From Patescibacteria group bacterium (lineage in GTDB: Bacteria > Patescibacteriota > Minisyncoccia > UBA6257 > UBA9933), in contig JBBTPY010000006.1 of assembly GCA_038065955.1 (NCBI GenBank), positions 7,626 to 71,625 on the forward strand: DNA of 64,000 nucleotides, given 5' to 3'. Below the pieces are notes generated by a model. It did no database searches. It saw nothing but the letters and a program-made list of their open reading frames with translations, and was not told the origin of the DNA. The position numbers and the translations under genes are program-made. Position 1 is the first letter of the stretch. Every line of letters starts with the position of its first letter. Positions 13,485-26,752 of this stretch are shown in pieces.

Positions 13485-14408
13485 ATGAAGAATGCGAAAA
13501 TTATTATGTTGTTTATTGTTTTCGTCGGGGTGGTTATTTATCTTGCGTTTAATTGGCAGATTTTGATTAAAAAAATTCAAACCCAGCTTGAATTTCGGCC
13601 GCTTTTCAGATTGCCGGTTAAAACAGAATTTGTAAAGACAAAAGGCGAAGCCGCGCCAATGGCAACATCGGTCGCGGCAATCGCGACTTCCGCGTCGGAA
13701 ATTCCGGATTATTTAATTCCTCTCGGATTTAAACGCGAAGAACTCAGTTCTTATTTTCAAAAAATAAGAATTTCTTCGGTTTCGCCGAGTTCATGGAGCA
13801 GTTATCCGGCCAGTCTCAGGCTTTATTCATATATTCAAAAAGGGGAATCAATTAACATTACGGGCTGGAAAATTAAAAGCAATCAACGCTCATTTGAAAT
13901 TTTTAAAAGCATTGATATTTATCGGTTGGAAGGTCCGTTTGACGAAACCGATATTATTTTACCGCAAAACGGCTCTTTGACGATTTACGGCGCCAAAAAT
14001 CCGTTCAATAAAAATCTCCGGCTTAACAAATGTTCCGGTTATTTGAATAATCTTTACGATTTTAATCCGGATTTGCCGCGTAATTGTCCTTTAATTTCGC
14101 GGGAAAGTTATAAAAATCTTTCAGGAGAGTGCCAATCATATATTATGTCTTTAGGCAGTTGCGAAATTCCGTCGGCCGATAATTATAATTCTTTCCCGGG
14201 CACCGACCAAGGCAACACTTGCCGGGCTTATTTAAACACTATCAGTTATGGCAATTGCTTTAATAAATACCGCAACGACGGAGATTTTCTTTTAAATGAA
14301 TGGTGGTTGTGGATTGATAAAAACACTTTTGATATTTTTGATTTGCGGCATGATGCTGTCAGGCTTTTTGACAAAGAAGGGAAATTAGTTGACCAGTACG
14401 TTTACTAA
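13485..14408 (+). CDS. Membrane-anchored Cys-rich extracytoplasmic protein, unknown function
   Basis: N-terminal TM helix. C-terminal half has 9 Cys in spaced pairs ('CSGY', 'CPLIS', 'GECQSY', 'GSCEIP', 'NTCRAY', 'GNCFNKY'). Confidence 0.35.
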   Translation: MKNAKIIMLFIVFVGVVIYLAFNWQILIKKIQTQLEFRPLFRLPVKTEFVKTKGEAAPMATSVAAIATSASEIPDYLIPLGFKREELSSYFQKIRISSVSPSSWSSYPASLRLYSYIQKGESINITGWKIKSNQRSFEIFKSIDIYRLEGPFDETDIILPQNGSLTIYGAKNPFNKNLRLNKCSGYLNNLYDFNPDLPRNCPLISRESYKNLSGECQSYIMSLGSCEIPSADNYNSFPGTDQGNTCRAYLNTISYGNCFNKYRNDGDFLLNEWWLWIDKNTFDIFDLRHDAVRLFDKEGKLVDQYVY

Positions 14409-15083
14409 GCCTCTTTTTACGATATTTATCGGGATTGCCAAACCGATGTTTTCGGCTTCCAAAAGCGCCACGGTGTTGATGCCGATAATTTCGCCTTTTA
14501 AATTAATTAACGGCCCGCCGGAGTTTCCCGGGTTGATGGCGGCGTCGGTTTGAATTAAATGGCGAATTTTATGGGCGGAAGAATTGATTTCGGTTTCAGC
14601 GGAAATGGTTCGGCCGAGTCCCGAGATAATGCCTTCGGAAACGGTGTTTTTAAAGCCATAGGCGTTGCCGAGAGCCAAAACGGTTTCGCCGAGCCGGATT
14701 TTATCGGAATCGCCGAGTTTGAGCGTCGGAAAATTTTTGTGTTTATTGGCGATTTGAAGAACGGCGATATCGTTATTTTTTTCCCAGCCGATAATTTTAG
14801 TTTTGTATTTTTTATTGTCGTTCGTGATAATTGCGTAATCGGCGCCGGGGTCGGCGATAATGTGTTTGCTGGTTAAAATAACGCCCGATTTGTCGATAAA
14901 AAATCCCGAGCCGCCGCCGATTTCAATATCGCCGTTGCGGTCGGCGATTTTTTTAAGTTTTTTCTTGTCTTTCGGACTGGTCATTTTTTTTGGAATTTTG
15001 GAAATATTTTCTGAAACCGTGATTGAAACTACGGCCGGCATTACCTTTTTAATTATTTTCGGTATTAAATTATTGTCGTTCAT
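14385..15083 (-). CDS. Trypsin-like serine protease (S1C/HtrA-like catalytic domain, no PDZ)
   Basis: 'GNSGGPLINLKGEIIGINT' oxyanion/Ser motif; His and Asp regions ('TSKHII', 'DIAVLQI') in the expected order. Confidence 0.8.
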   Translation of the reverse strand: MNDNNLIPKIIKKVMPAVVSITVSENISKIPKKMTSPKDKKKLKKIADRNGDIEIGGGSGFFIDKSGVILTSKHIIADPGADYAIITNDNKKYKTKIIGWEKNNDIAVLQIANKHKNFPTLKLGDSDKIRLGETVLALGNAYGFKNTVSEGIISGLGRTISAETEINSSAHKIRHLIQTDAAINPGNSGGPLINLKGEIIGINTVALLEAENIGLAIPINIVKRGLVNVLVN

Positions 15084-15134: not shown

Positions 15135-15224
15135 TGGCGGAGGGTAGAGGATTTGAACCTCTGAGGGGATTTCTCCCCAAGCGCATTTCGAGTGCGCCGC
15201 ACTAGACCACTATGCGAACCCTCC
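15135..15224 (-). tRNA. tRNA-Ser (anticodon CGA) with long variable arm; CCA encoded
   Basis: Minus-strand reverse complement folds as cloverleaf. Acceptor GGAGGGT/ACCCTCC; anticodon stem GCGCA/TGCGC with loop CUCGAAA; long variable arm; T-arm GGTTCAAAT. Confidence 0.8.
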
Positions 15225-15232
15225 ATGCCCTA

Positions 15233-15303
15233 TGCCCTCGCGAGGAATCGAACCTCGATTTTAGGTTTAGGAAACCCACGTCCTATCCGTTGAACGACAA
15301 GGG
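15233..15303 (-). tRNA. tRNA-Arg (anticodon CCT); CCA not encoded
   Basis: Reverse complement GCCCTTG...CGAGGGCA; anticodon stem TGGGT/ACCTA with loop TTCCTAA; T-arm GGTTCGATTCC. Confidence 0.75.
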
Positions 15304-15384
15304 CGGTTTGATTTAGTTTATCTTTTTTATTTGAAAGTTGCAATTAAATTAAATTTTAAGTAATATTTTCAATATATTTTAAGC

Positions 15385-15455
15385 GGGCCTATAGTAAAAT
15401 GGTATTACATCTCCATGGCATGGAGAAGGTAGGAGTTCGATTCTCCTTAGGTCCA
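15385..15455 (+). tRNA. tRNA-Ala (anticodon GGC) with G3:U70; CCA not encoded
   Basis: Acceptor GGGCCTA/TAGGTCC with G3-U70 wobble (Ala identity element); D stem GTAA/TTAC; anticodon stem TCTCC/GGAGA with loop ATGGCAT; T-arm AGGAGTTCGATTCTCCT. Confidence 0.75.
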
Positions 15456-15650
15456 CTGTATGATACTTCGAGCCGGAGAATTGCTGATTAAGCTCGAAGA
15501 TTACTGACAATTTTGCGGTTCCAAATCCTTTATTTCGCGTGTACGGAATTCCCTCAGATTTATATTGATTTTCCATTTTCATATTTATTCTCATTTTTCG
15601 GCTACTTTTGCATACAATCGGATATAGCCGTTATATACGATTTTGGGCTG

Positions 15651-15728: not shown

Positions 15729-16118
15729 ATGGCAAAAATCCATATCAAAAAGTTTTTACCCGACGGCGCTATTAACCCGGAGTATTTAGAGGAGTTGAAG
15801 CGTCGGACACTTATTCAAAGCACGGCTTCATCTTTGCGGCTTTCTGGCATTAAGATTACCGAGAAAGAAGTTGAACTAATTGTTAATCGCCCGGCGTCCA
15901 ATTCTGTTTTCCATAAAAACATAGAAAAGATTTTATCGCCAAAACAGCTGGCGGTTTTGAAGTATCTGCAAAGCGTGGAAGAAGCCGCTCCCGGCGAAAT
16001 TGCTAAAAAAGCAAAAGTTGCCAGACCCACAGTCAATCAAGCGTTAGACAAGCTTTTGCGCCTCAAAAAAGTCGAACGGATCGGCCTTGGAAGAAGTACG
16101 AGATATAGGAAATTATGA
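15729..16118 (+). CDS. Small winged-helix DNA-binding protein; N-terminal motif shared with ORF 27172
   Basis: C-terminal wHTH ('IAKKAKVARPTVNQALDKLLRLKKVERIG'). N-terminal 'RRTLIQSTASSLRLSGIKITEKEVELIV' is paralogous to 'RKTLIESTGASVRLSGLKITNEEVEKII' at 27172. Confidence 0.45.
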   Translation: MAKIHIKKFLPDGAINPEYLEELKRRTLIQSTASSLRLSGIKITEKEVELIVNRPASNSVFHKNIEKILSPKQLAVLKYLQSVEEAAPGEIAKKAKVARPTVNQALDKLLRLKKVERIGLGRSTRYRKL

Positions 16119-16220: not shown

Positions 16221-18113
16221 ATGAATAATAACGGCGTACATCGCAAAAAGGATTCGGCGCGGATTGTGTGGGATTCAAAGCCACATCGCGCGCCGAATCC
16301 GAAAGATATTGAATTTCAAACAGCCGAGGTGGTGATTCCGAACCCAGAAACCGCCGGGCAGTTGCCGATGTCTTTTCAGGATAGACTGCTGGGAGAGGAA
16401 GAACTAGACAAGCAAAAAATGAACCGCCTCATTTGGGGCGACAATCTGCTCGCGATGCAGGCGCTTTTGAATCAGGGGTACGAGGGCAAAATCAATCTCA
16501 TCTACATTGATCCGCCGTTTGATTCTAAAGCGGACTATTCGCATAAAATAAAGCTCGGCGAAACCGAATTTACCAAAGAGCCGAGCGTGATTGAGCGGCT
16601 TGCCTACAAAGACACTTGGGCCGGCGGCACGGATTCTTATCTTGATATGCTTTACCCACGCCTGCAACTAATGAAGCGGCTCCTGTCAGACAACGGATCG
16701 ATTTATGTGCATATTGGTGGTCATGTTAATGCTTACGTTAGACTATTGTTAGACGAAGTATTTGGCACAGACAACCTGATTAACGAGATCACGTGGTTTT
16801 ATAAAAATAAACTACAATCAAAACTATCTCAATTTTTCCCGAAAGATACCGAAAGTGTATTCGTTTTTGCAAAAAAATATGGCGATCATCAATTTCATCA
16901 TCAATATATTAAATTAGATGAGCCACGCAAACAAAATAAGATAAAATGGGATCCAGTCCACAAGAAGACTGTTACCGTAAAGGACGAAGCGGGCAATGTA
17001 GTTTATTATCAATCTGATCAAAAATTGATTGGCCAAATGTGGGAAATACCACGCGTCAATTCTATGGCAAAAGAAGACACGGGATATGATACACAAAAAC
17101 CACATGAGCTCATGGAAAGAATAATTAAAGCCGGTTCATCCGAGGGAGATTTAGTGGCAGATTTCTTTTGTGGGTCTGGTACCACACTTGCTCTTGCAGA
17201 AAAACTCAACCGCCGATGGATCGGGTGCGAATTGGGAAAAGTCGGCATACAAGTCACGCGGGGGCGGATGGTGGAGATGAAAAGCAAACCATTTCTGATT
17301 GAAAATATCGGCAATTATCAGCGCGAGATGATTTATCTGGGTGGCGCACGGATTTACGAGATGCAGAGAATTATTTTGAAACTCTACGGCGCGGAGCCGA
17401 TGGACGGGCGTAAAGATTTAGGCGTGAGAAAAACGGAGGATGGAACGCTGGAACTGGTCTATTGCGGCTATCCCGATAGGGCAGTTGCGGCGCATAAGGT
17501 GGAAGATTTGGCGAAGGAAGCGCAAATGCTTGATGGCACGGGCTACAAGAGACTCGTGATTCTGGCGTGGGATTATGAATACAATTATGACGAGCTTTTA
17601 CAAACGCGGATAAAAGCCGCGGGCAAGGATATAAAAACGGAAATTGTCAGCCGTCAGATTCCGCCGGACATTTACGAATACTTAAAACAAACAAAATCAG
17701 AAGAAGATATTGAGCGGTTTTCGGACAAAGTGAAGTTTTTAGAAAAACCGTATTTGAAGCTAAAAAAACCGAAAGTGAAAGACAATTCGGTTACTATCGG
17801 CATTGAAAAGTATGTGCTATATGATTTCCCGCTTGGAAGTGGCAAAAAAGCGGGCGAAGACCACCAACAACTGATGCGACTTGTCAAAGACAATTTCGCC
17901 ATTTTGATTGACTACTGGGCAGTGGATTGGGACTACGACGAATTGACCTTCAAAAGCCATTGGCAGGATTTGCGCGGGAATGGCCGAAAAGCAAAAGTAG
18001 TAGCAACAGAGAAAGAACATTCGTATGAAAAATCCGGGAAGCACACAATTGCCGTGCGCGTGGTGGACATTTTTGGCAACGATGCCACGGCTACGATTGA
18101 TATAAAGACATAA
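16221..18113 (+). CDS. mod: Beta-class N6-adenine/N4-cytosine DNA methyltransferase, Type III Mod-like
   Basis: Motif IV 'IYIDPPF' lies N-terminal to motif I 'DFFCGSGTTLALAEKL' (beta-class order). Middle region is variable (TRD-like). Immediately upstream of a Res-like helicase-nuclease. Confidence 0.8.
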   Translation: MNNNGVHRKKDSARIVWDSKPHRAPNPKDIEFQTAEVVIPNPETAGQLPMSFQDRLLGEEELDKQKMNRLIWGDNLLAMQALLNQGYEGKINLIYIDPPFDSKADYSHKIKLGETEFTKEPSVIERLAYKDTWAGGTDSYLDMLYPRLQLMKRLLSDNGSIYVHIGGHVNAYVRLLLDEVFGTDNLINEITWFYKNKLQSKLSQFFPKDTESVFVFAKKYGDHQFHHQYIKLDEPRKQNKIKWDPVHKKTVTVKDEAGNVVYYQSDQKLIGQMWEIPRVNSMAKEDTGYDTQKPHELMERIIKAGSSEGDLVADFFCGSGTTLALAEKLNRRWIGCELGKVGIQVTRGRMVEMKSKPFLIENIGNYQREMIYLGGARIYEMQRIILKLYGAEPMDGRKDLGVRKTEDGTLELVYCGYPDRAVAAHKVEDLAKEAQMLDGTGYKRLVILAWDYEYNYDELLQTRIKAAGKDIKTEIVSRQIPPDIYEYLKQTKSEEDIERFSDKVKFLEKPYLKLKKPKVKDNSVTIGIEKYVLYDFPLGSGKKAGEDHQQLMRLVKDNFAILIDYWAVDWDYDELTFKSHWQDLRGNGRKAKVVATEKEHSYEKSGKHTIAVRVVDIFGNDATATIDIKT

Positions 18114-18117
18114 TCCT

Positions 18118-20961
18118 ATGACAAAGAAAATCCACAATAATTTACTCAATGAATTACCGCTTGCCGCGATACTTGCACCGGAAGTAAAGGCGTGGGCGGA
18201 TCAGGGCTGGCAAGGCGTAACGCAGACGACCTACGAACTTTTGGCGTATTGGTTTAATCGTGGGGAAGAAGACGGCGATGGATTTCATAAATGTCAGCGC
18301 CGTGCGGTGGAGACGATTATTTACTGCCATGAAGTTTTGGGTATTGAAACACTCAAACAGGCATTTGAAAGATTTGCTCCCGAAGCGTTGGCGGCAAGCG
18401 CGGCTCTTTCGGAAGAAGTGCAGAATTTACCTTTTGCGAAATATTGTCTCAAAATGGCAACCGGTACCGGCAAGACATGGGTTTTGGCCGCACTTTTAGT
18501 ATGGCAATATTTCAACGCCCTGAACGGCGAGCGGCCGGGAAAATATTCCTCACATTTTTTGCTCGTTGCGCCTGGACATGAGGTATTGAATCGTTTGCTG
18601 GATATGTTTTTAGGAAAGCATAACCCGAAAACCGGCAATCGCGACAAATCAAAATCGGATTTTGAGCGACCGCTTTTTATACCAGAGGGCGAGCGGTTTC
18701 GCAATCGTTTTAATCTGCAAGTTTTGGAACCGGCGGACATCCGACCAAATCTTACGCCGCCGGACGAGCCGTTTGTGTATATCACTAACTGGCAGCAGTT
18801 TCGTTTGAACGAATCCAGCAACTTATGGGATCAACTAACTGGCGCTGATGTGGAGGAACAGCCGCGCGGCGAAATCATTGCCGATTTTCTTTCCGAGTAT
18901 TCAGATTTAATTATTTTCAATGACGAGGCGCACCATGTCCATGGCGCTAAAACCGCTAAAGGCGAGGAGTTGGTGTGGCGGAAATTCTTAACCGCTCTGT
19001 ATAACCGAATGGCGGAAAAGCGCGGCGATGAGAAAGGCGTATTTTTACAAATTGATTTTTCCGCTACGCCATTTTATGGCAGCGCGGAGAAAAAAGAGTA
19101 CTTCCCCCATATCGTCTATGATTTTGATTTAGTGGAAGCGATGCGGGCGATGCTCGTGAAGCAGATATTTTTGGAAGAACGGCAGGGAATGATGGGCGAG
19201 AAAATGGATGACCTTGATGTGCGCGCCGAACGAGCCGAAGCCGACGACGAACACCGGCGCGGGCAAGTTATCGGTGTTTCCGTGAGCCAGAAACTGCTTT
19301 TAGACATCGGCAGAAAAAAGATGGAGCAGATCGCCGTGGAATTTCGCGAAAAAGGACTGGATAAAAAACCGGTGCTTTTCGTGCTTGCGGAAAATACCGA
19401 GGTGGCTGATTTGGTTGCCGAGCATTTGGCAAATTTGACCGACGAGCGTGGCAGAAACTATCGCAATCAAGTTCTTGTAATTCACTCTGATAAAAAAGGC
19501 GAAATGAGCGACAAGGATTGGGAAAAGTATCGCCAGCAGTTGGAAACGCTAGATGAGCCAGAGGAAATAAACCAGATTCGCGTCGTGGTAAGCGTCTTGA
19601 TGTTGCGCGAGGGTTTTGACACTCAAAATGTGGCGGTGGTAGTGGTTTTGCGGAGCGCGAAAGCTGATCTCCTTTTGGAACAGATTGTCGGGCGCGGCGT
19701 ACGACTGATGTTCCCGGAATACAAATACCCAGAACTTGCGGACTTGAAGCGAGAGGCGCGGGAAGATGTGATGCGAAAGCGCGCGCCGAAAAACTCTTTG
19801 GACTTTTTGTTTGTTGTTGAACACCCAAAATTTCGAGGTTTCTATGAAGAATTACAGAAACAGGGATATGCGATTGGTATTGGCGATTCGTCGAGCACGG
19901 AAACAACCGGCGATTTGATTTTGTCGGAAGCCACACCCGAAAGAATTAAAAAATACGATCTCTCTTGGCCGATACAGGTATATGAACAGTCGCCGAAGTT
20001 TGATTTTTCCGCCATAGGCATTTCGGGGTTACCGAAGTATTCCATTCCGTTTGAGATGCTCAAAAAACAACTTTCCCAAATCTCCATCACAGAAACACAC
20101 GCCGAGACGGGTGGAAAAATAAAAACATGGAAACTGGACAATCAGTATTTTGATTACGCCCATTTCTTGCGCCAAGCAACAATCGCGGTGGCTTCCGAGC
20201 GCGGCACGAACACACTCACTAGCAAGATGGCAGATATTACCGGAATTATTGACGAGTATGTAAGTAATTATTTATTCGGCGGCGAGATTGACTTTCAGAA
20301 GGCCGAAAATTATACGGTCCTCAATTACGCACCGCTTTTTGATTTTGTTGTCGGGAGCGTCAAGCGAGTATTGTTGGATGGCTTGGGTAAAATTCAATAC
20401 GAAGTGAAAGCGGGAAAAGTTGGCAGGTTGAGCGATATAAAAAAGATTTATGTGCGGCAATCGCTATCTGTGCCGGTGGAGCGGTGTATTTATCCGCTCG
20501 CCGGATATTCGCGGCGAGGTGAAGGATTTGAGAAAAAGTTTATGGAGGAAACTTTGGATAAATCCACCGAGGTGGAAGCGTTTGGAAAAATTCAACAGAG
20601 AAAACACCTGCTCAACATTTCCTATCGGGACAAAGACGGAATCAAGCGCGACTATTTCCCCGACTTCGTTATCAAGATAAAAGACAAAATGTATATCGTG
20701 GAAACGAAAGCCGAGGACGAAATACAGAAGGCGGAAGGCAACGAAAAGAATTTGATCGTTTTGAAGGCGCGCGCGGCCGTGAGTTGGTGCAAAACAGCAA
20801 GTCAAATATCGCTCCCGAACCAGCCGCAGGAATGGGAGTATTTTATGTTATCTGAAAAGACATTCAATGAAAACCGGCAATTGGGCTTTGATGCGCTGGC
20901 CGACTTGGGTAGATTGGATTTGGAGCGGCTTTTGACGAGTGAAGCGGGGAAGCTGTTTTGA
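18118..20961 (+). CDS. res: Type III restriction enzyme Res subunit (SF2 helicase plus PD-(D/E)xK nuclease)
   Basis: Walker A 'MATGTGKTWV'; DEAH box 'IIFNDEAHHV'; downstream helicase motifs; C-terminal 'DFVIKIKDKMYIVETKAEDE' nuclease core. Confidence 0.8.
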   Translation: MTKKIHNNLLNELPLAAILAPEVKAWADQGWQGVTQTTYELLAYWFNRGEEDGDGFHKCQRRAVETIIYCHEVLGIETLKQAFERFAPEALAASAALSEEVQNLPFAKYCLKMATGTGKTWVLAALLVWQYFNALNGERPGKYSSHFLLVAPGHEVLNRLLDMFLGKHNPKTGNRDKSKSDFERPLFIPEGERFRNRFNLQVLEPADIRPNLTPPDEPFVYITNWQQFRLNESSNLWDQLTGADVEEQPRGEIIADFLSEYSDLIIFNDEAHHVHGAKTAKGEELVWRKFLTALYNRMAEKRGDEKGVFLQIDFSATPFYGSAEKKEYFPHIVYDFDLVEAMRAMLVKQIFLEERQGMMGEKMDDLDVRAERAEADDEHRRGQVIGVSVSQKLLLDIGRKKMEQIAVEFREKGLDKKPVLFVLAENTEVADLVAEHLANLTDERGRNYRNQVLVIHSDKKGEMSDKDWEKYRQQLETLDEPEEINQIRVVVSVLMLREGFDTQNVAVVVVLRSAKADLLLEQIVGRGVRLMFPEYKYPELADLKREAREDVMRKRAPKNSLDFLFVVEHPKFRGFYEELQKQGYAIGIGDSSSTETTGDLILSEATPERIKKYDLSWPIQVYEQSPKFDFSAIGISGLPKYSIPFEMLKKQLSQISITETHAETGGKIKTWKLDNQYFDYAHFLRQATIAVASERGTNTLTSKMADITGIIDEYVSNYLFGGEIDFQKAENYTVLNYAPLFDFVVGSVKRVLLDGLGKIQYEVKAGKVGRLSDIKKIYVRQSLSVPVERCIYPLAGYSRRGEGFEKKFMEETLDKSTEVEAFGKIQQRKHLLNISYRDKDGIKRDYFPDFVIKIKDKMYIVETKAEDEIQKAEGNEKNLIVLKARAAVSWCKTASQISLPNQPQEWEYFMLSEKTFNENRQLGFDALADLGRLDLERLLTSEAGKLF

Positions 20962-20965
20962 ATTT

Positions 20966-21085
20966 ATGATAGAAAAACAAACAAAAGTCCGCGACTACGA
21001 AAAACAAATTGACCAGCTCGTCTATAAACTCTACGGCCTCACCCCGGAGGAGATTAAAATTGTTGAGAATAATAATAAAAAATGA
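20966..21085 (+). CDS. 39-aa ORF ending in a 'LYGLTxEEIKIVE'-type motif (remnant of an RM-methylase C-terminal tail, or a small coupled peptide)
   Basis: ATG 5 nt after the res stop. Its stop overlaps the next ATG (ATGA). Sequence 'MIEKQTKVRDYEKQIDQLVYKLYGLTPEEIKIVENNNKK'. Confidence 0.3.
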   Translation: MIEKQTKVRDYEKQIDQLVYKLYGLTPEEIKIVENNNKK

Positions 21086-21801
21086 CCACCGAGGATTACA
21101 ATTTATATAAATTACTTATCGAAGCGATAATAGCAATCGTCTCTCTTTTAGTTGGTGGAGTAATGGGTATTTATGTAGAAAATAGGTGGAAAATAGTGAA
21201 AAAAGTTAAAAGCCGCATAAATCAGAAAGGTTATGTAAATCAAGCAGTCGAAGTTATTGATAGTCCGCATTCTTCTCCTCAAAATGCTGGTGGCGATGCA
21301 CTTAGACAAGAAGGCGCGGGGGTTCTTGCATCCATTAAAGATAGCCCAGGTGCCTCAATAAACTTTGCGAATAATGAACCCAGGGTCGGGAGCCCCGATG
21401 AAGCTCTTGGGACAAGTTCTTTGCCCACGGAAAGTGAGCGTATTTCTTTGAGTTCGAATCAGGCGCATATTTATCAGAAAGTTCAAGAAATTCTCCAAAA
21501 ACTGAATAAAAACACTACTTTTGCAGCCAGATACCAAAATGCAATCCGTCATTTGAACAGTAATAATGCACAGGTCTGTGCTTCTGAATATCACAGCGCC
21601 TTTCTCGATGTCGTTCCAATTATTTTAGAGCGTTCCACATATGGCAGTTCTGCTCCTACAAAAGATAATTTGGACGCTCTGAACAAATCTTTTGAACAAA
21701 TCCGAGTATTTATGAACACCTCTTCTCACGACGATGCAACGCTGGGAAATACTCTAAAAAGCTTTGAGGATGCCATTCTAATTTTACTTGGTTATCTATG
21801 A
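21082..21801 (+). CDS. Membrane-anchored hypothetical protein (239 aa) in the RM-linked operon
   Basis: N-terminal TM helix, Pro/Ser-rich linker, alpha-helical C-terminal domain. Start and stop codons overlap the flanking genes. Confidence 0.4.
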   Translation: MTTEDYNLYKLLIEAIIAIVSLLVGGVMGIYVENRWKIVKKVKSRINQKGYVNQAVEVIDSPHSSPQNAGGDALRQEGAGVLASIKDSPGASINFANNEPRVGSPDEALGTSSLPTESERISLSSNQAHIYQKVQEILQKLNKNTTFAARYQNAIRHLNSNNAQVCASEYHSAFLDVVPIILERSTYGSSAPTKDNLDALNKSFEQIRVFMNTSSHDDATLGNTLKSFEDAILILLGYL

Positions 21802-24800
21802 ATCAAATCGGATTACACAAAAAAATAGACGAGTTGCTGACAAGGGGGCCTGCTGAAGCAAAGCGTGAGGATATCTCTGCTTTGGCTTCAGCTAATCAGG
21901 ACGCACATCAATACTTTTTCACCAAGGCGGATGAGCGTTGGCTTGATTGGCTTTGGGAAAACGGATTTTTGAATGTCGTCAAGCAAAAAGCAGAAGATCC
22001 GACACGCTATGGCTATAGGACGCCGGAGATTAATTATCTTGTGAAAGTTTCCGAGAGAGAGCCAACCAAGGTGGTTGATATTATGCTTGAGGTGCCAATT
22101 TCTGCCGAGAATTTTAACCCCGAAGTAGTGGATAGATTCTTACGCATCTGCAGCGGCCTGCCGGCACCAGAGCTCAAGCGGGTAGTAAAGAAGATCCGTG
22201 ATGAAAGATGGGTTTCGCTTATGGGAGCTTTCAATGATTGGGGTTTTGAGTATGAAAAAATGCTTAAAACATTAACAGAGGCCAGCGACTTTAATAGCGT
22301 TCTTGCTATTGCCGAGGCAATACTTTCCGTGAGAACAAAGGAAGAGGCGGAAAAAACTTCACGCGGATTTTTATCTGATAACCCCTTCTACTTTAAAGAG
22401 CTAAGTTATACAAAAGTATTTGAGTACCTGCTTAAGATAGATGAGAAAAATATAGAGAAAGCGCTTACTCTAATGACCAACGCAATGAAGCAGGTAGTGC
22501 TCTTCGGGGAAAAAGATCATAAAGACGAGGTGTTTAAAGTTTATGATAGTTACTTTTTATTGGATGTAGATTTTTTTGAGCTTGAACTTACCGAGAAAGA
22601 CAGGCTTTCACACGGGGACGATGTTAAAAATCTCGCAGCCGTTATTAAGCATTATGCAGAACAAACCATAGGACAACAGTGCAACAACGAAGAGTTGATC
22701 ACAAAATTATATGATAAGTATTTTGAGCCATTGCCAGATAGCCGTTCTATGTGGCGTCTGCGATTGTTTGTGTTGAGCTTGTGTCCCGAAGCGTTTAAGA
22801 AAAAGCTCAAAAAAGCGTTCTTCCGATTGTTTGAGGTCGAGCGTTATTATAACGAGTTGATTTCTGGCACAGAATATCTAAAAGCATTACGCGTCGGATT
22901 TCCTGTTTTATCTGATACTGATAAGCGTGATTATGTAAAACGGGTCATAGAGTATTTTACAAAAAAAGACCGAGAAAAGGAGAACGAAAAAGAAAATTGG
23001 CACATAGGGTACGGCTCGAGGATTCTTTCAGTAATAGCCGATCAGCTTACTGAAGAAGAAAAACAAGTAGCTGAAAAAGCTAAATTTACCATCCGTTCTA
23101 ATTACGAACCAGAGCCGTCTATAAAAATGGGTGGATTTGCCGGCAGTATAAGGCCGAGAGGTCCGACTACCCAAGAAGCATTTGGGAAACTTCCGATAGA
23201 TGATATTGCACAAAAATTAAGAACTGAATGGAAACCAGAGAAGTTAAGAGAAGAAAACACAAATGAAGATTTTCACAACCCATTAAATGCCGAGGGTGCC
23301 GGCGAATTGTTGCGTATAGATATTTCTAAACGACTGCAAGATTATGTAAACAATGCCAACCTCTTCTTTGAACGGGGTGTATTGGATCAGCATTATACTT
23401 ATTCTTTTCTGCGAGGCATACAGGAGATTCTTCGCGGCAATAAAGCTGATTCTGGCAATATAAATTGGGATAACTTATTAGCTCTCTGTATCACAATAAA
23501 GGAATCTGGTGAGTCCAATCCTTTCGATAATGAAAGGCGCGAACGAGATAGTTTTGATGCGTGGCTTTCTGGCTGGACAGGCGTTCATTCTGCCATGACG
23601 GATGTTGTCCAAGAACTATTAAGTGAAGAAAGAAGTGTTAAAATCGATTTTCCTAAACATCGCGACAAATTTTTAGTGATTATGAGTTATCTACTCGCTT
23701 ATCCCGATCCGATTCCAGCTGATGAAGAGCCGAAAACGGCGACAATGACCACGACTTCTCCCGGCGCGCAAGAACAGATGGTGAGCGATCCGTATTCAAT
23801 GGCAATCAATACAGTGCGTGGCCGAGCATTTCAGGCTTTTGCGCTATTTATGTATCAAGACGGAAAGAAGTTTCCTAAGGAAGAAAAAGTAAAAATTTCT
23901 CCCGATGTAAAAGAGTTGTATGAGGCAGTTCTAAAAAAAGAGCAGACCCGTGCCCTTATGTTTATGTTCGGGCACTATCTGCCATCGTTCTATTTCCGAG
24001 ACAATGAATGGATACAAGGGCTATTCTCGCAGATTTTCCCCGTAGAGTCAGAAAAGAAAAACCTTTATACGGCATCTTGGGAGGGTTATGTCTCAGCCAA
24101 TCTTTATGAGGAGATATTCTTTAATCCAGAAATTCAAAAACTCTATGAACGAGGCCTCGCATTAACAGATGCGGATTATCCAAAGCAAAAGCATTTCAAA
24201 GAGCCGGATGAAGGTGTTGCTGTTCACATTGCGCTCGCTTTTATGCATTTCTCAAAATTTGGCTTTGAGCACGATCTATTCAAAACATTCTGGAGTACGC
24301 CAAATACAGAAAATCATAAAGAGTTCATTTCGTTTATTGGTCGTCATTCTATCTCACGAGAATCGGCTGCGGAATGGATAAAATATAACAAGGTTGATAT
24401 AGAGAAGCTTAAGAAATTCTGGGATTGGGCACTTGAAAACTGCAGCGCCGATGCGCTAATAGGTTTTGGTTTTTGGATCAATACAGAACGCAGTGCGCTG
24501 GATACAAAATGGCTCGCCCGGCATGCGCGCCAAACGCTCGAAAAGACAAAAGGATATGTCGAGTGGGAATATGGATTGATGCGCTCGCTCATGGCATTTG
24601 CTAAAGAAGCGCCGGAAGATACGCTTGCGATTTTGCGTGCTCATATTTTTGAAGAGGTGGCAAAACATGAGCCGGTTAGAACTTGGCTTCACATGGATAC
24701 CGAGGTTTATGACGCTTTCCGAGAACTCTATAAAAATGAGACGACCAAAGAAGGTGTTCGCACACTTATCAACGATCTCTTGCCATACCGCAACGGTATG

Positions 24801-24839
24801 TTTTGGGGGTTGAAGACGATATTAGACGAAACCAAATAA
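21798..24839 (+). CDS. Large (1013 aa) hypothetical alpha-helical protein, RM-associated, no recognisable catalytic motif
   Basis: Uninterrupted ORF translationally coupled to the upstream gene. No Walker, HD, DEAD or nuclease motifs found by eye. Composition and GC match the res/mod genes. Confidence 0.45.
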   Translation: MNQIGLHKKIDELLTRGPAEAKREDISALASANQDAHQYFFTKADERWLDWLWENGFLNVVKQKAEDPTRYGYRTPEINYLVKVSEREPTKVVDIMLEVPISAENFNPEVVDRFLRICSGLPAPELKRVVKKIRDERWVSLMGAFNDWGFEYEKMLKTLTEASDFNSVLAIAEAILSVRTKEEAEKTSRGFLSDNPFYFKELSYTKVFEYLLKIDEKNIEKALTLMTNAMKQVVLFGEKDHKDEVFKVYDSYFLLDVDFFELELTEKDRLSHGDDVKNLAAVIKHYAEQTIGQQCNNEELITKLYDKYFEPLPDSRSMWRLRLFVLSLCPEAFKKKLKKAFFRLFEVERYYNELISGTEYLKALRVGFPVLSDTDKRDYVKRVIEYFTKKDREKENEKENWHIGYGSRILSVIADQLTEEEKQVAEKAKFTIRSNYEPEPSIKMGGFAGSIRPRGPTTQEAFGKLPIDDIAQKLRTEWKPEKLREENTNEDFHNPLNAEGAGELLRIDISKRLQDYVNNANLFFERGVLDQHYTYSFLRGIQEILRGNKADSGNINWDNLLALCITIKESGESNPFDNERRERDSFDAWLSGWTGVHSAMTDVVQELLSEERSVKIDFPKHRDKFLVIMSYLLAYPDPIPADEEPKTATMTTTSPGAQEQMVSDPYSMAINTVRGRAFQAFALFMYQDGKKFPKEEKVKISPDVKELYEAVLKKEQTRALMFMFGHYLPSFYFRDNEWIQGLFSQIFPVESEKKNLYTASWEGYVSANLYEEIFFNPEIQKLYERGLALTDADYPKQKHFKEPDEGVAVHIALAFMHFSKFGFEHDLFKTFWSTPNTENHKEFISFIGRHSISRESAAEWIKYNKVDIEKLKKFWDWALENCSADALIGFGFWINTERSALDTKWLARHARQTLEKTKGYVEWEYGLMRSLMAFAKEAPEDTLAILRAHIFEEVAKHEPVRTWLHMDTEVYDAFRELYKNETTKEGVRTLINDLLPYRNGMFWGLKTILDETK

Positions 24840-24843
24840 TTTT

Positions 24844-25161
24844 ATGGACGAAGAAAAAGAGCGGCAAAAAGAAATAAGAGAAAAATTAGAAAGCGAGGGG
24901 CTTGACCCGGACGAATTTGACGAGGAAGAGCGCGAAGAACTCGCCACAGACGAATCACTGCAGAATGTTGTAGCGAACAATGTCCGACAAAGCTCCGAGC
25001 TTGAATTTAAAGGGGTTTTCAACGGCAAGGTTGACGATCAATTTGAAATTGACCGCAAATTGTGGGAACAGCTTACGAATAATCCCGAATTAAATAAGTA
25101 TATTGAGAAAAAAATGTTTAAGTATGTAGCCGATAAGATTTTAGCATTGCGAGAGGAGTAA
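24844..25161 (+). CDS. Small acidic hypothetical protein (105 aa), last gene of the RM-linked operon
   Basis: Starts 4 nt after the previous stop. N-terminal half is very acidic (E/D-rich). Confidence 0.35.
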   Translation: MDEEKERQKEIREKLESEGLDPDEFDEEEREELATDESLQNVVANNVRQSSELEFKGVFNGKVDDQFEIDRKLWEQLTNNPELNKYIEKKMFKYVADKILALREE

Positions 25162-25635
25162 ATTTTAAGACCCGCCTTTTAGTGACGGGCCTAAGGGTGG
25201 AATCGGGAGATGTATCACGAGCAATCTTTGACTTTACCTCTCCAGAGCCGATTAATCTGTTTTTTTGTGTGTAAGAATGCCTGATATACTGCGTATGGGG
25301 GGAGGACGCCATTCTTGAGGTGAGTTGCCCGATTGGTACCGAACCATTCTTCCGACCTTATTTGTGCTTGGTGTGGCCGTGGCCGGGCTTAGGAACGCGT
25401 TCGACAACATGGGTACGGGGATTGTTTCGCGCTTTCTGGACGGTAGTTAACCTGCCGGTATTTGCGCTGCGGCCACGAAGAGTAGTTTTATGAGCCATTT
25501 TAATTTTCCATCTTAATTTTTAATAAATCGACCTTTTATACTTCCATTTTTAAACCTATTTTACTTGTTGTCAAGGAGTTTTACTTATCCACTTGACAAG
25601 GTTTCTTTACAGGAGTAATATGGTAGTATAAATAC

Positions 25636-26418
25636 ATGGCTACAAACCTATACAAAAAAATAAAGGAGTTGCGTGAGCAAAACAAATTTTCTCAAGAGTA
25701 TCTGGCGGAACAACTCAAGGTCTCCCGTCCTACTTATATGCAGGTTGAAAAGGGCGAGCGAGACATTACCGTACCGGAGGCAAGAAAGCTTGCTCTGGTT
25801 TTTGGCGTGAGTTTAGAAGATTTTCTCGGCGAAGAAGTTTCAGCGCTTCCCGATGTGGTTTTAAAGAAAGAAAAAGCCAAAGAGAAAGAAAGCGATATCC
25901 GCATTATTATGCCTCGAGCGGATGTAAAAAAGTTCAAAGAAGTGCTTCTCTATGTTTTAAGCAAGATTGGAGCAAAACCGAACATTGGAGAGACCGCCCT
26001 CTACAAACTTTTGTATTTTATTGACTTTGATTTCTATGAGAAGTTTGAAGAACAGCTTACCGGGGCGCGATACATAAAAAATCATTACGGCCCCACGCCG
26101 GTTGAATTCAAGAAGATCGTTGAAGGGATGGAGAAAAAAGGAGAGGTTGAGCGCGTTAAATCGAGTTACTTTCAGTACGACCAAAAAAAATATCTGCCGC
26201 GCAGAGAACCCGATCTAAAGAATCTCTCGGCGCAGGAAATTAAACACATTGACGAAGTTCTCGCCCGATTATCAGATAAGAACGCCAACGAGCTGTCCGC
26301 CTATTCGCATAGCGATGTGCCATGGAGAGTACACAAAGCTGGAGAGACGATCAGCTACGAAAGCGTATTTTACCGAGACGAGGATCACTCTGTAAGAAAT
26401 TACGACGATGAACTTTAG
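25636..26418 (+). CDS. HTH-XRE plus Panacea (DUF4065/SocA-like) domain antitoxin
   Basis: N-terminal XRE helix-turn-helix ('SQEYLAEQLKVSRPTYMQVEKGER'). C-terminal 'TALYKLLYFIDFDFYEKFEEQLTGARYIKNHYGPTP' matches the Panacea core. Confidence 0.6.
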   Translation: MATNLYKKIKELREQNKFSQEYLAEQLKVSRPTYMQVEKGERDITVPEARKLALVFGVSLEDFLGEEVSALPDVVLKKEKAKEKESDIRIIMPRADVKKFKEVLLYVLSKIGAKPNIGETALYKLLYFIDFDFYEKFEEQLTGARYIKNHYGPTPVEFKKIVEGMEKKGEVERVKSSYFQYDQKKYLPRREPDLKNLSAQEIKHIDEVLARLSDKNANELSAYSHSDVPWRVHKAGETISYESVFYRDEDHSVRNYDDEL

Positions 26419-26752
26419 TGAAACCAATGAATTTTCAAAAGATTTCAAGCGACTCTCAAAAAAATATAGATCCCTGCCGGATGATTTGCTTGAATTCAAA
26501 AAGATCATATCAGAAATTCCTCTCGGTAGTGGGAAGCACTTTGTAGTGCTTCACGAAAACGAGGAGGTGAAAATTCTAAAGGCGCGCCTATTCTGTAAAT
26601 ATCTCAGGGGCGCGTCTTTGCGTATTATCTACGCATATCGTGAGACTACGGCAACGATTGATTTCATCGAGATTTATTATAAGGGTGAGCAGGCAAACGA
26701 AACTAAGGGCCTGATTAATGACTTTCTGCGCGAGTTAAATAAAAATGGATAA
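26408..26752 (+). CDS. RelE/ParE-superfamily type II toxin
   Basis: Overlaps the antitoxin stop (ATGA). '...LRIIYAYRETTATIDFIEIYYKGEQ' resembles the RelE/HigB/ParE C-terminal region. Confidence 0.55.
   Translation: MNFSETNEFSKDFKRLSKKYRSLPDDLLEFKKIISEIPLGSGKHFVVLHENEEVKILKARLFCKYLRGASLRIIYAYRETTATIDFIEIYYKGEQANETKGLINDFLRELNKNG

Follow-up and report, generated by a model that had tools for sequence, protein, structure and literature searches.

A putative Dsr1/Avs7-type sensor with exchangeable N-terminal partners in Patescibacteria

What is the role of a large helical protein with no readable enzymatic signature, encoded a little way downstream of a type III restriction–modification (R-M) system in a member of the Patescibacteria (candidate phyla radiation, CPR)? 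The gene in question occupies positions 21798–24839 on the forward strand of the window, by which we mean the whole stretch of 64,000 nucleotides analysed here (assembly GCA_038065955.1, contig JBBTPY010000006.1, positions 7,626–71,625 of the forward strand), and its product has 1013 amino acids. A preliminary description of this DNA had singled the protein out as the best candidate for a new effector or sensor component, and had taken it to be translationally coupled to the restriction gene res. In our analysis the best explanation, which we favour with moderate confidence, is a two-gene sensor/partner module that lacks an NTPase and consists of this protein, as the sensor, and of a membrane protein encoded by the overlapping upstream gene; that such a module is an anti-phage system seems to us likely.

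The open reading frame (ORF) is indeed uninterrupted from its ATG start, and it is real far beyond chance, because a word-indexed search returned more than 600 homologues, many of them at E=0. Its product is identical to MEK7657965.1, from a Patescibacteria metagenome-assembled genome (MAG). That the protein would be helical was borne out by an AlphaFold2 model built on 80 homologues, which is entirely α-helical with a mean predicted local distance difference test (pLDDT) of 87.8, and both of the Trp/Phe-rich strings that had been pointed out, WLDWLWENGFLN at residue 48 and FWDWALENC at residue 874, are present and coincide with Trp residues conserved in the family (W48/W51/W53 and W875/W877). 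Across a divergent alignment of the family the invariant and near-invariant positions are mostly aromatic, Gly or Pro. Likewise, the claim that no enzymatic signature is visible stands, as the protein has no Walker A motif and no match in Pfam, its NTPase families included, or in NCBIfam, and neither it nor its 239-amino acid partner gives a SIR2 signal in Pfam, NCBIfam or PADLOC. The structural comparison that had been proposed was successful only to the extent of the confident helical model; Foldseek against the PDB yielded nothing beyond generic HEAT/ARM solenoids at TM-scores of about 0.2 (karyopherin-, CAND1- and mTOR-like, e.g. RanBP5, CAND1 and CRM1), which are uninformative, and searches of PDB sequences by phmmer and with a profile gave no match, the SeAvs7 structures included. 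Judged from sequence and model, the product is an all-α solenoid without SIR2, NTPase or other enzymatic domain and without a catalytic constellation. A HEPN RNase reading of R526-x5-H532, the only R-x5-H string of the solenoid, was rejected, since no more than 13 of 35 divergent members have R526 and the motif is not conserved in the Dsr1-like relatives either.

The earlier statement that the protein contains no recognisable motif holds for the general libraries Pfam and NCBIfam, but not for PADLOC, in which its single match is to the Dsr1 model PDLC04166 (E=1.6e-17). The matching segment, 23169–24347 (+), corresponds to residues 458–850 and to positions 737–1076 of the 1227 in the profile. 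The same model matches 16 of 35 diverse family members, with a best E of 7e-21, and a second Dsr1 model matches two. When plasmids were searched by tblastn with the window protein, distant relatives were found in Legionella pneumophila (789 amino acids; locus L093 in our numbering) and in haloarchaea (1493 and 1501 amino acids; L094 and L095). The Legionella protein matches the Dsr1 model at 8e-34 over profile positions 469–1214, and the archaeal proteins match at 2e-18 and, for L095, 2e-31, in their C-terminal two-thirds; both archaeal proteins also show weak, sub-threshold signals of STAND-type NTPases (nSTAND1, NACHT and AAA_22) at about residues 180–340. In hhalign comparisons the family profile A2 aligned with L093 at 99.3% (E=4.9e-20, 553 columns, residues 358–1002) and with L095 at 98.6% (E=1.2e-15, 708 columns, from residue 78; alignment columns 90–905), which places a profile-level region of Dsr1-type sensor homology at 22029–24803 (+), or residues ~78–1002. 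Because the PADLOC match and the alignments to L093 and L095 agree, we are highly confident that the protein is a homologue of the Dsr1/Avs7-type sensor over almost its whole length, and this is the outcome of the remote homology search suggested in the preliminary description. The offsets in the Dsr1 profile (residue 458 at 737 and 850 at 1076) put the N-terminus of the solenoid just past the position of SIR2. The 1493-amino acid STAND-like protein with a Dsr1-type sensor is encoded on the Halocatena salina plasmid NZ_CP096023.1 (75951–82742), where its neighbours are a divergently oriented gene for a 437-amino acid ‘HEPN domain-containing protein’ and transposases.

The family to which the sensor belongs is large. 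It numbers 2368 representative clusters at E<=1e-3 in an exhaustive profile search, 456 of them at E<=1e-30, and a pattern-limited scan that took in 185,579 GTDB species genomes led to 87 confirmed relatives, mostly in Patescibacteria, with the rest in Caldilineaceae, Nitrospirales, Omnitrophota, Auribacterota and Fibrobacterota. The spread of these relatives is sporadic and runs over unrelated phyla, and some genomes contain multiple divergent paralogues (L034/L036 and L045/L085). Members come in two lengths, of ~1010 and ~1150–1210 amino acids, the longer form having an extra N-terminal domain of ~150–200 amino acids, here denoted ND.

On its N-terminal side the sensor has an obligate partner, fused to it or translationally coupled. 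Where the 5′ end of the sensor gene was resolved (81 loci), a partner, either a fused domain or an adjacent upstream gene, was present in 80. ND is fused to the sensor in 20 of the 81; in 14 others an ND-bearing ORF extends ~20 codons into the sensor reading frame and then stops, which reflects either a variant split point or a frameshift; and in 46 the partner is a separate upstream gene, with a typical gap of about −4 to +40 nucleotides. Most of these separate partners match the ND hidden Markov model.

ND itself is a helical domain of ~170 amino acids in which R75 and H144 are invariant, while S73, Y79 and H145 are conserved at 95–98% and D65, W66 and Q69 at ~90% (numbering of the family protein P0011). 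Its model, a bundle of eight predicted helices with a pLDDT of 81, has no significant match in the PDB (best E=0.29), and the matches of ND sequences to Pfam pP_pnuc_1 are sub-threshold (best E=0.0017, in 6 of 14 sequences) and serve only as a hint. Assignment to HEPN, HD or known nucleases was rejected for lack of a significant fold match, a HEPN structure ranking only 47th at E=3.3, and the HEPN pattern R-x4-6-H does not fit, as R75 and H144 lie ~70 residues apart. A profile search recovered only 21 proteins, all short and stand-alone, and it returned no case of ND within another protein architecture, the kind of occurrence that would prove a portable effector. ND, which turned up solely in company with this sensor, is a candidate effector of new fold, and it may be a new enzymatic effector. 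Two proteins, P0151 (1313 amino acids) and P0268 (1293 amino acids), carry ND in tandem, with two copies ahead of the sensor.

Other partners are found in the same place, viz. CHAT proteases (L036, 31.4 bits; L024, 21.8 bits), an FRG+ND protein in Caldilineaceae (FRG, 61 bits), a protein with a weak Mrr-like match (L019) and transmembrane (TM) proteins, which fall in two classes. These partners are swapped between closely similar sensors: the window sensor, with its TM partner, is 82% identical to that of L001 (P0011), which has a fused ND; the sensors of L017 (TM) and L018 (split ND) are 81% identical; and the paralogues L036 (CHAT) and L034 (split ND), both from the Paceibacterota MAG SMAG_U8138, are 86% identical. 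Between L090 and the window, on the other hand, the partners are much more alike than the sensors. Partner shuffling of this kind, among sensors that are 81–86% identical, is the hallmark of an immune sensor whose outputs can be interchanged. In the Caldilineaceae loci L040, L042 and L045 the upstream FRG+ND ORF enters the sensor reading frame by ~20 codons, and these are either split at a point unlike that used in Patescibacteria or are frameshifted fusions.

In the window, the partner gene lies at 21082–21801 (+) and encodes 239 amino acids, its stop codon overlapping the sensor start as ATGA. The coupling to res was therefore misplaced in the preliminary description: it is the stop of this ORF that the sensor ATG overlaps, res ends at 20961, and a further small ORF, orf39, stands between res and the partner. 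The partner has no Pfam, NCBIfam or PADLOC match; a word-based search found nine homologues, and the protein belongs to the larger TM class, which is seen in nine loci and stands upstream of the sensor in L010, L017, L039, L046, L063, L069, L070 and L090 as well. Members of this class consist of a TM helix, a low-complexity linker and a C-terminal helical domain of ~120 amino acids. The single TM helix of the window protein is predicted at 21109–21174 (+; residues ~10–31, KLLIEAIIAIVSLLVGGVMGIYV) from a Kyte–Doolittle 19-residue maximum of 2.45 at residue 12, and an equivalent helix is seen across the class. Since a K/R-rich stretch follows this helix, the positive-inside rule predicts that the remainder of the protein is cytoplasmic. 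The C-terminal helical domain, 21433–21798 (+; residues ~118–239), forms a conserved block in the alignment of the class and is presumed to be the docking module for the sensor N-terminus. Homology of the window partner to ND was considered and is not supported, the hhalign probabilities being 0.5–7%; the C-terminal domain resembles the first two helices of the fused ND collinearly, but weakly and without significance (6–7%).

How might such a pair act? Lee et al. (bioRxiv January 2026, PMC12803255; Nature July 2026, PMC13581612) described a sensor common to Avs7 and Dsr1, bilobed and sharply bent, which envelops the HK97-fold major capsid protein (MCP), the trigger of both SeAvs7 and EcDsr1. 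By homology to these two proteins, the solenoid of the window would bind a conserved phage protein, most likely an HK97-fold MCP; binding would change the conformation or oligomeric state of the sensor, and the changed sensor would activate the partner docked at its N-terminus. Because the window partner is predicted to cross the membrane once and to place its helical domain in the cytoplasm, the likeliest output would be membrane damage or growth arrest (abortive infection) brought about by clustering of TM helices. Of the two roles first proposed for the large protein, that of sensor is the one upheld, through the homology to Dsr1 and Avs7, and that of effector is not, as the variable element is the partner gene or fused N-terminal domain. 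The MCP as the specific trigger and the TM partner as the effector are both tentative assignments, each of which we hold to be a little more doubtful than probable. A broader proposal, that the family is an NTPase-independent pattern-recognition module and the main Dsr1/Avs7-type sensor lineage of Patescibacteria/CPR, with two uncharacterised outputs (an ND that is possibly enzymatic, and a single-pass membrane partner that kills or arrests the cell on capsid binding) exchanged on very short timescales, is more speculative again and we put it forward as a possibility that may well prove wrong.

Several points weigh against the sensor/partner module as set out here. The trigger is transferred from proteins only ~20–24% identical to the window family, and the support for the module comes from homology and genomic context. 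The proposal does not account for a route of activation without a STAND NTPase, and little is known of the phages of Patescibacteria and their capsid proteins. The module is packed into a single array with mod and res, and some functional coupling to them in the window is thus possible. As for the partner, it has no homology to any known effector that Pfam, NCBIfam or PADLOC could detect, no polar residue is invariant in the alignment of its class, a single TM helix would make a minimal effector, and the protein may act as a membrane anchor instead.

This last point leads to the alternative that survives best, although we consider it unlikely, in which the two proteins form a sensor–anchor pair: the 239-amino acid protein would tether the sensor, and the effector would be encoded elsewhere or the sensor itself would sequester the phage protein. 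The features of the TM class just listed favour this idea, as a single helix is weak as a candidate pore, and the large interface between Avs7 and the MCP, which is reported to bury 3,700 Å2, makes stoichiometric sequestration conceivable. However, sister loci have effector-looking domains at the very same position, namely CHAT protease, FRG and ND with its invariant Arg and His, and the exchange of partners among 81–86% identical sensors is the pattern expected of effectors, for which reasons a module of sensor and effector partner is still preferred.

Could the gene instead serve a phage or another mobile element for its own benefit, in superinfection exclusion or as an anti-defence function? 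Three IMG/VR contigs carry the sensor family, serine recombinases or integrases occur near several loci, and the island in the window abuts a tRNA cluster. Set against this, the family has no match in 50,697 GenBank phage records, and on the IMG/VR contigs it is flanked by methylases and a DinG-like helicase, with no match to families of phage structural proteins among the ten flanking ORFs scanned (eight in L090, two in L092). In the window, a search downstream of the tRNA cluster for an att-like direct repeat of the tRNA found none, and a defence gene may, besides, be carried on a mobile element. We therefore regard a role for the element's own benefit as improbable, and return to the anti-phage module as the working explanation.

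More improbable still is that the sensor serves the adjacent type III R-M system as an accessory or regulatory subunit, e.g. one that recruits or licenses the nuclease together with mod and res. In the window the case has some appeal, since mod (16221–18113, +), res (18118–20961, +), orf39 and the genes for the partner, the sensor and orf105 follow one another in a single same-strand array with 4-nucleotide gaps or 4-nucleotide overlaps, in which a scan between the six ORFs found no convincing terminator; this tight packing means that co-transcription of the sensor module with the R-M genes is possible. Across the family, too, the methylases and helicases of R-M systems are the commonest neighbours. 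Among 149 nearest ORFs from ~42 non-redundant loci we counted N6_Mtase (9), Eco57I (8), N6_N4_Mtase (5), ResIII (5), TaqI_C (4), MmeI_Mtase (4), GmrSD_N (2) and Vsr (2), as well as integrases, and R-M genes of several types dominate this census. Yet homologues of the window res adjoin only three other loci (L072, L074 and L092) of ~80, and mod-like genes only ~10; the R-M types differ from one locus to the next, being type I/IIG-like (N6_Mtase), Eco57I/MmeI-like, type III-like or GmrSD; and many loci have no R-M genes nearby, some adjoining CBASS (CD-NTase and Cap15, at L003) or plain housekeeping genes, with MutH and serine recombinases in individual loci. Nothing accompanies the sensor invariably except the small partner or the fused N-terminal domain. 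The functional link to res and mod implied by the preliminary description is thus not supported, and its suggested check for co-occurrence with methyltransferase and helicase genes came out in part, R-M genes being frequent but varied in type and without conserved mod/res linkage. Because res homologues are so few and the R-M types so varied, the association is one of shared defence islands and not a dedicated partnership; the type III system of the window is a neighbour within the defence island that may be co-transcribed with the module but does not work with it as a functional partner.

The weakest alternative, a housekeeping HEAT/ARM scaffold of Patescibacteria (a transport or assembly adaptor, for instance) with no part in defence, would suit the solenoids returned by Foldseek, the lack of Pfam and NCBIfam annotation and the loci set amid housekeeping genes, but is scarcely credible given how generic those structural matches are, the sporadic distribution with divergent paralogues in single genomes, the specific Dsr1/Avs7-type homology, the variable partners, and the recombinase and R-M neighbours.

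Some further features of the window and of related loci deserve mention. Between res and the partner, orf39 (20966–21085, +; 39 amino acids, MIEKQTKVRDYEKQIDQLVYKLYGLTPEEIKIVENNNKK) starts 4 nucleotides after the res stop, and its own stop overlaps the partner ATG; whether it belongs to the sensor module is uncertain. Its ending, ‘...VYxLYGLTxEEIxIVE’, resembles the C-terminal tail of many type IIG/Eco57I-like methylase-nucleases, and for that reason orf39 may be what is left of a gene, or else a small ORF that serves for coupling. On the other side of the sensor, orf105 (24844–25161, +) begins 4 nucleotides past the sensor stop and encodes an acidic protein of 105 amino acids with no Pfam, NCBIfam or PADLOC match; as tblastn across ~90 related loci gave no homologue, it probably does not belong to the conserved module. 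The res gene is atypical, as its product combines ResIII and Helicase_C with a C-terminal match to the TnsA-like endonuclease N-terminal domain (residues 831–892), and its match to the NCBIfam restriction endonuclease family BPTD_3080 is no more than partial (237 bits; cut-off 800). In L001, from Liptonbacteria, a gene for an AEP-TOTE/ResIII/Helicase_C protein (13585/13615–15774, +) overlaps the 3′ end of the fused ND–sensor gene and is a possible additional component; none of the other loci with listed gene content has such a gene.

Downstream of orf105 there is a non-coding gap of ~470 nucleotides (25162–25635), locally GC-rich and with no Rfam match, in which divergent promoter-like sites at 25546–25621 are the best of the scanned region, with 10 of 12 matches. 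It is followed by a gene for a 260-amino acid protein with HTH_3 and SocA/Panacea domains (25636–26418, +) that overlaps an ORF of 114 amino acids (26408–26752, +). From their domains and arrangement the two look like a Panacea-type toxin–antitoxin pair, and in L039 and L055 a homologous pair directly precedes the sensor module. At the other end, the accessory array begins at 15729, right after a cluster of three tRNA genes at 15135–15456 (Ser-cga, −; Arg-cct, −; Ala-ggc, +), and the GC content climbs to 0.44–0.48 over mod and res. Just outside the cluster, 14385–15083 (−) encodes a trypsin-like serine peptidase of 232 amino acids with matches to PDC-M35A and, in the PADLOC ‘RT-Protease_XI’ models, to the protease portion.

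The Patescibacteria/CPR, with their tiny genomes, are usually described as having few known defence systems other than R-M. A widespread module of the capsid-sensor type would, if confirmed, extend structure-based recognition of phage proteins to this large uncultured branch of the bacteria. The family also amounts to a natural experiment, in which a sensor that is 81–86% identical between loci has been wired to ND, to a TM protein or to a CHAT protease, in fused or split form, and it should be a convenient system in which to study how sensors of the Dsr1/Avs7 type can switch on an effector when no STAND NTPase is present. For annotation, the sensor gene should not be assigned to the adjacent type III R-M system.

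Considering, finally, how the module relates to known systems, Dsr1 (defence-associated sirtuin 1; Garb et al. 2022) has a homologous helical sensor of ~900–1000 residues with a variable module collinear at its N-terminal side, is likewise free of a STAND NTPase and is likewise found in defence islands. It differs in its SIR2 NADase, which is absent from the window protein and from the partner, and the window match covers positions 737–1076 only of the Dsr1 profile. Dsr1 is also a single polypeptide, whereas the window has two overlapping genes and its relatives are fused or split; the N-terminal module of the family is a TM-helix protein in the window and ND in most relatives, and most hosts of the family belong to the Patescibacteria.

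Avs7 (antiviral STAND type 7; SeAvs7, PDB 9N00/9N01/9YIX; PMC13581612) shares the same superfamily of TPR-like sensors, as seen in the alignment of the family with the sensor of the haloarchaeal STAND-like L095 (98.6%, 708 columns), and has an N-terminal effector that is variable and often exchanged. The central STAND NTPase of Avs7 (Walker A/B, NBD-HD-WHD) is, however, missing from the window protein, and the two-gene layout is different. In Avs7 the NTPase drives tetramerisation; as the window protein has neither the NTPase domain nor a Walker A motif, tetramerisation driven in this way cannot be what activates the window module. A more distant parallel is offered by DSR2 (SIR2-MID-CTD), where an α-solenoid sensor is reported to bind the tail tube protein of the phage and so to switch on an effector at the N-terminus, with no NTPase involved. 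The sensor family and the trigger are different ones, and no DSR2 match occurs in PADLOC, among the PDB sequence matches or among the 50 listed of the 84 significant Foldseek matches.

The module is thus neither Dsr1, having no SIR2 and two genes, nor Avs7, having no STAND NTPase, yet it uses their sensor. The class that fits best is that of the STAND-less proteins with an Avs7/Dsr1 sensor (Extended Data Fig. 2 of PMC13581612), which are free of the NTPase and have variable effectors, sometimes encoded by adjacent genes; in these proteins the sensor occurs with NADase, nuclease, kinase, HEPN-like, TM and unknown effectors, some of them split (PMC13581612, PMC12803255), and in the present family a module in the effector position, N-terminal to the sensor, is found fused or as an adjacent gene in nearly every resolved locus. 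The ‘new’ component announced by the preliminary description is consequently new only in part, since the sensor type and its modular use with many effectors without a STAND NTPase were published in 2026 (PMC13581612), while the split form with a TM partner, ND, and the dominance of the family in CPR are the aspects that had not been characterised.

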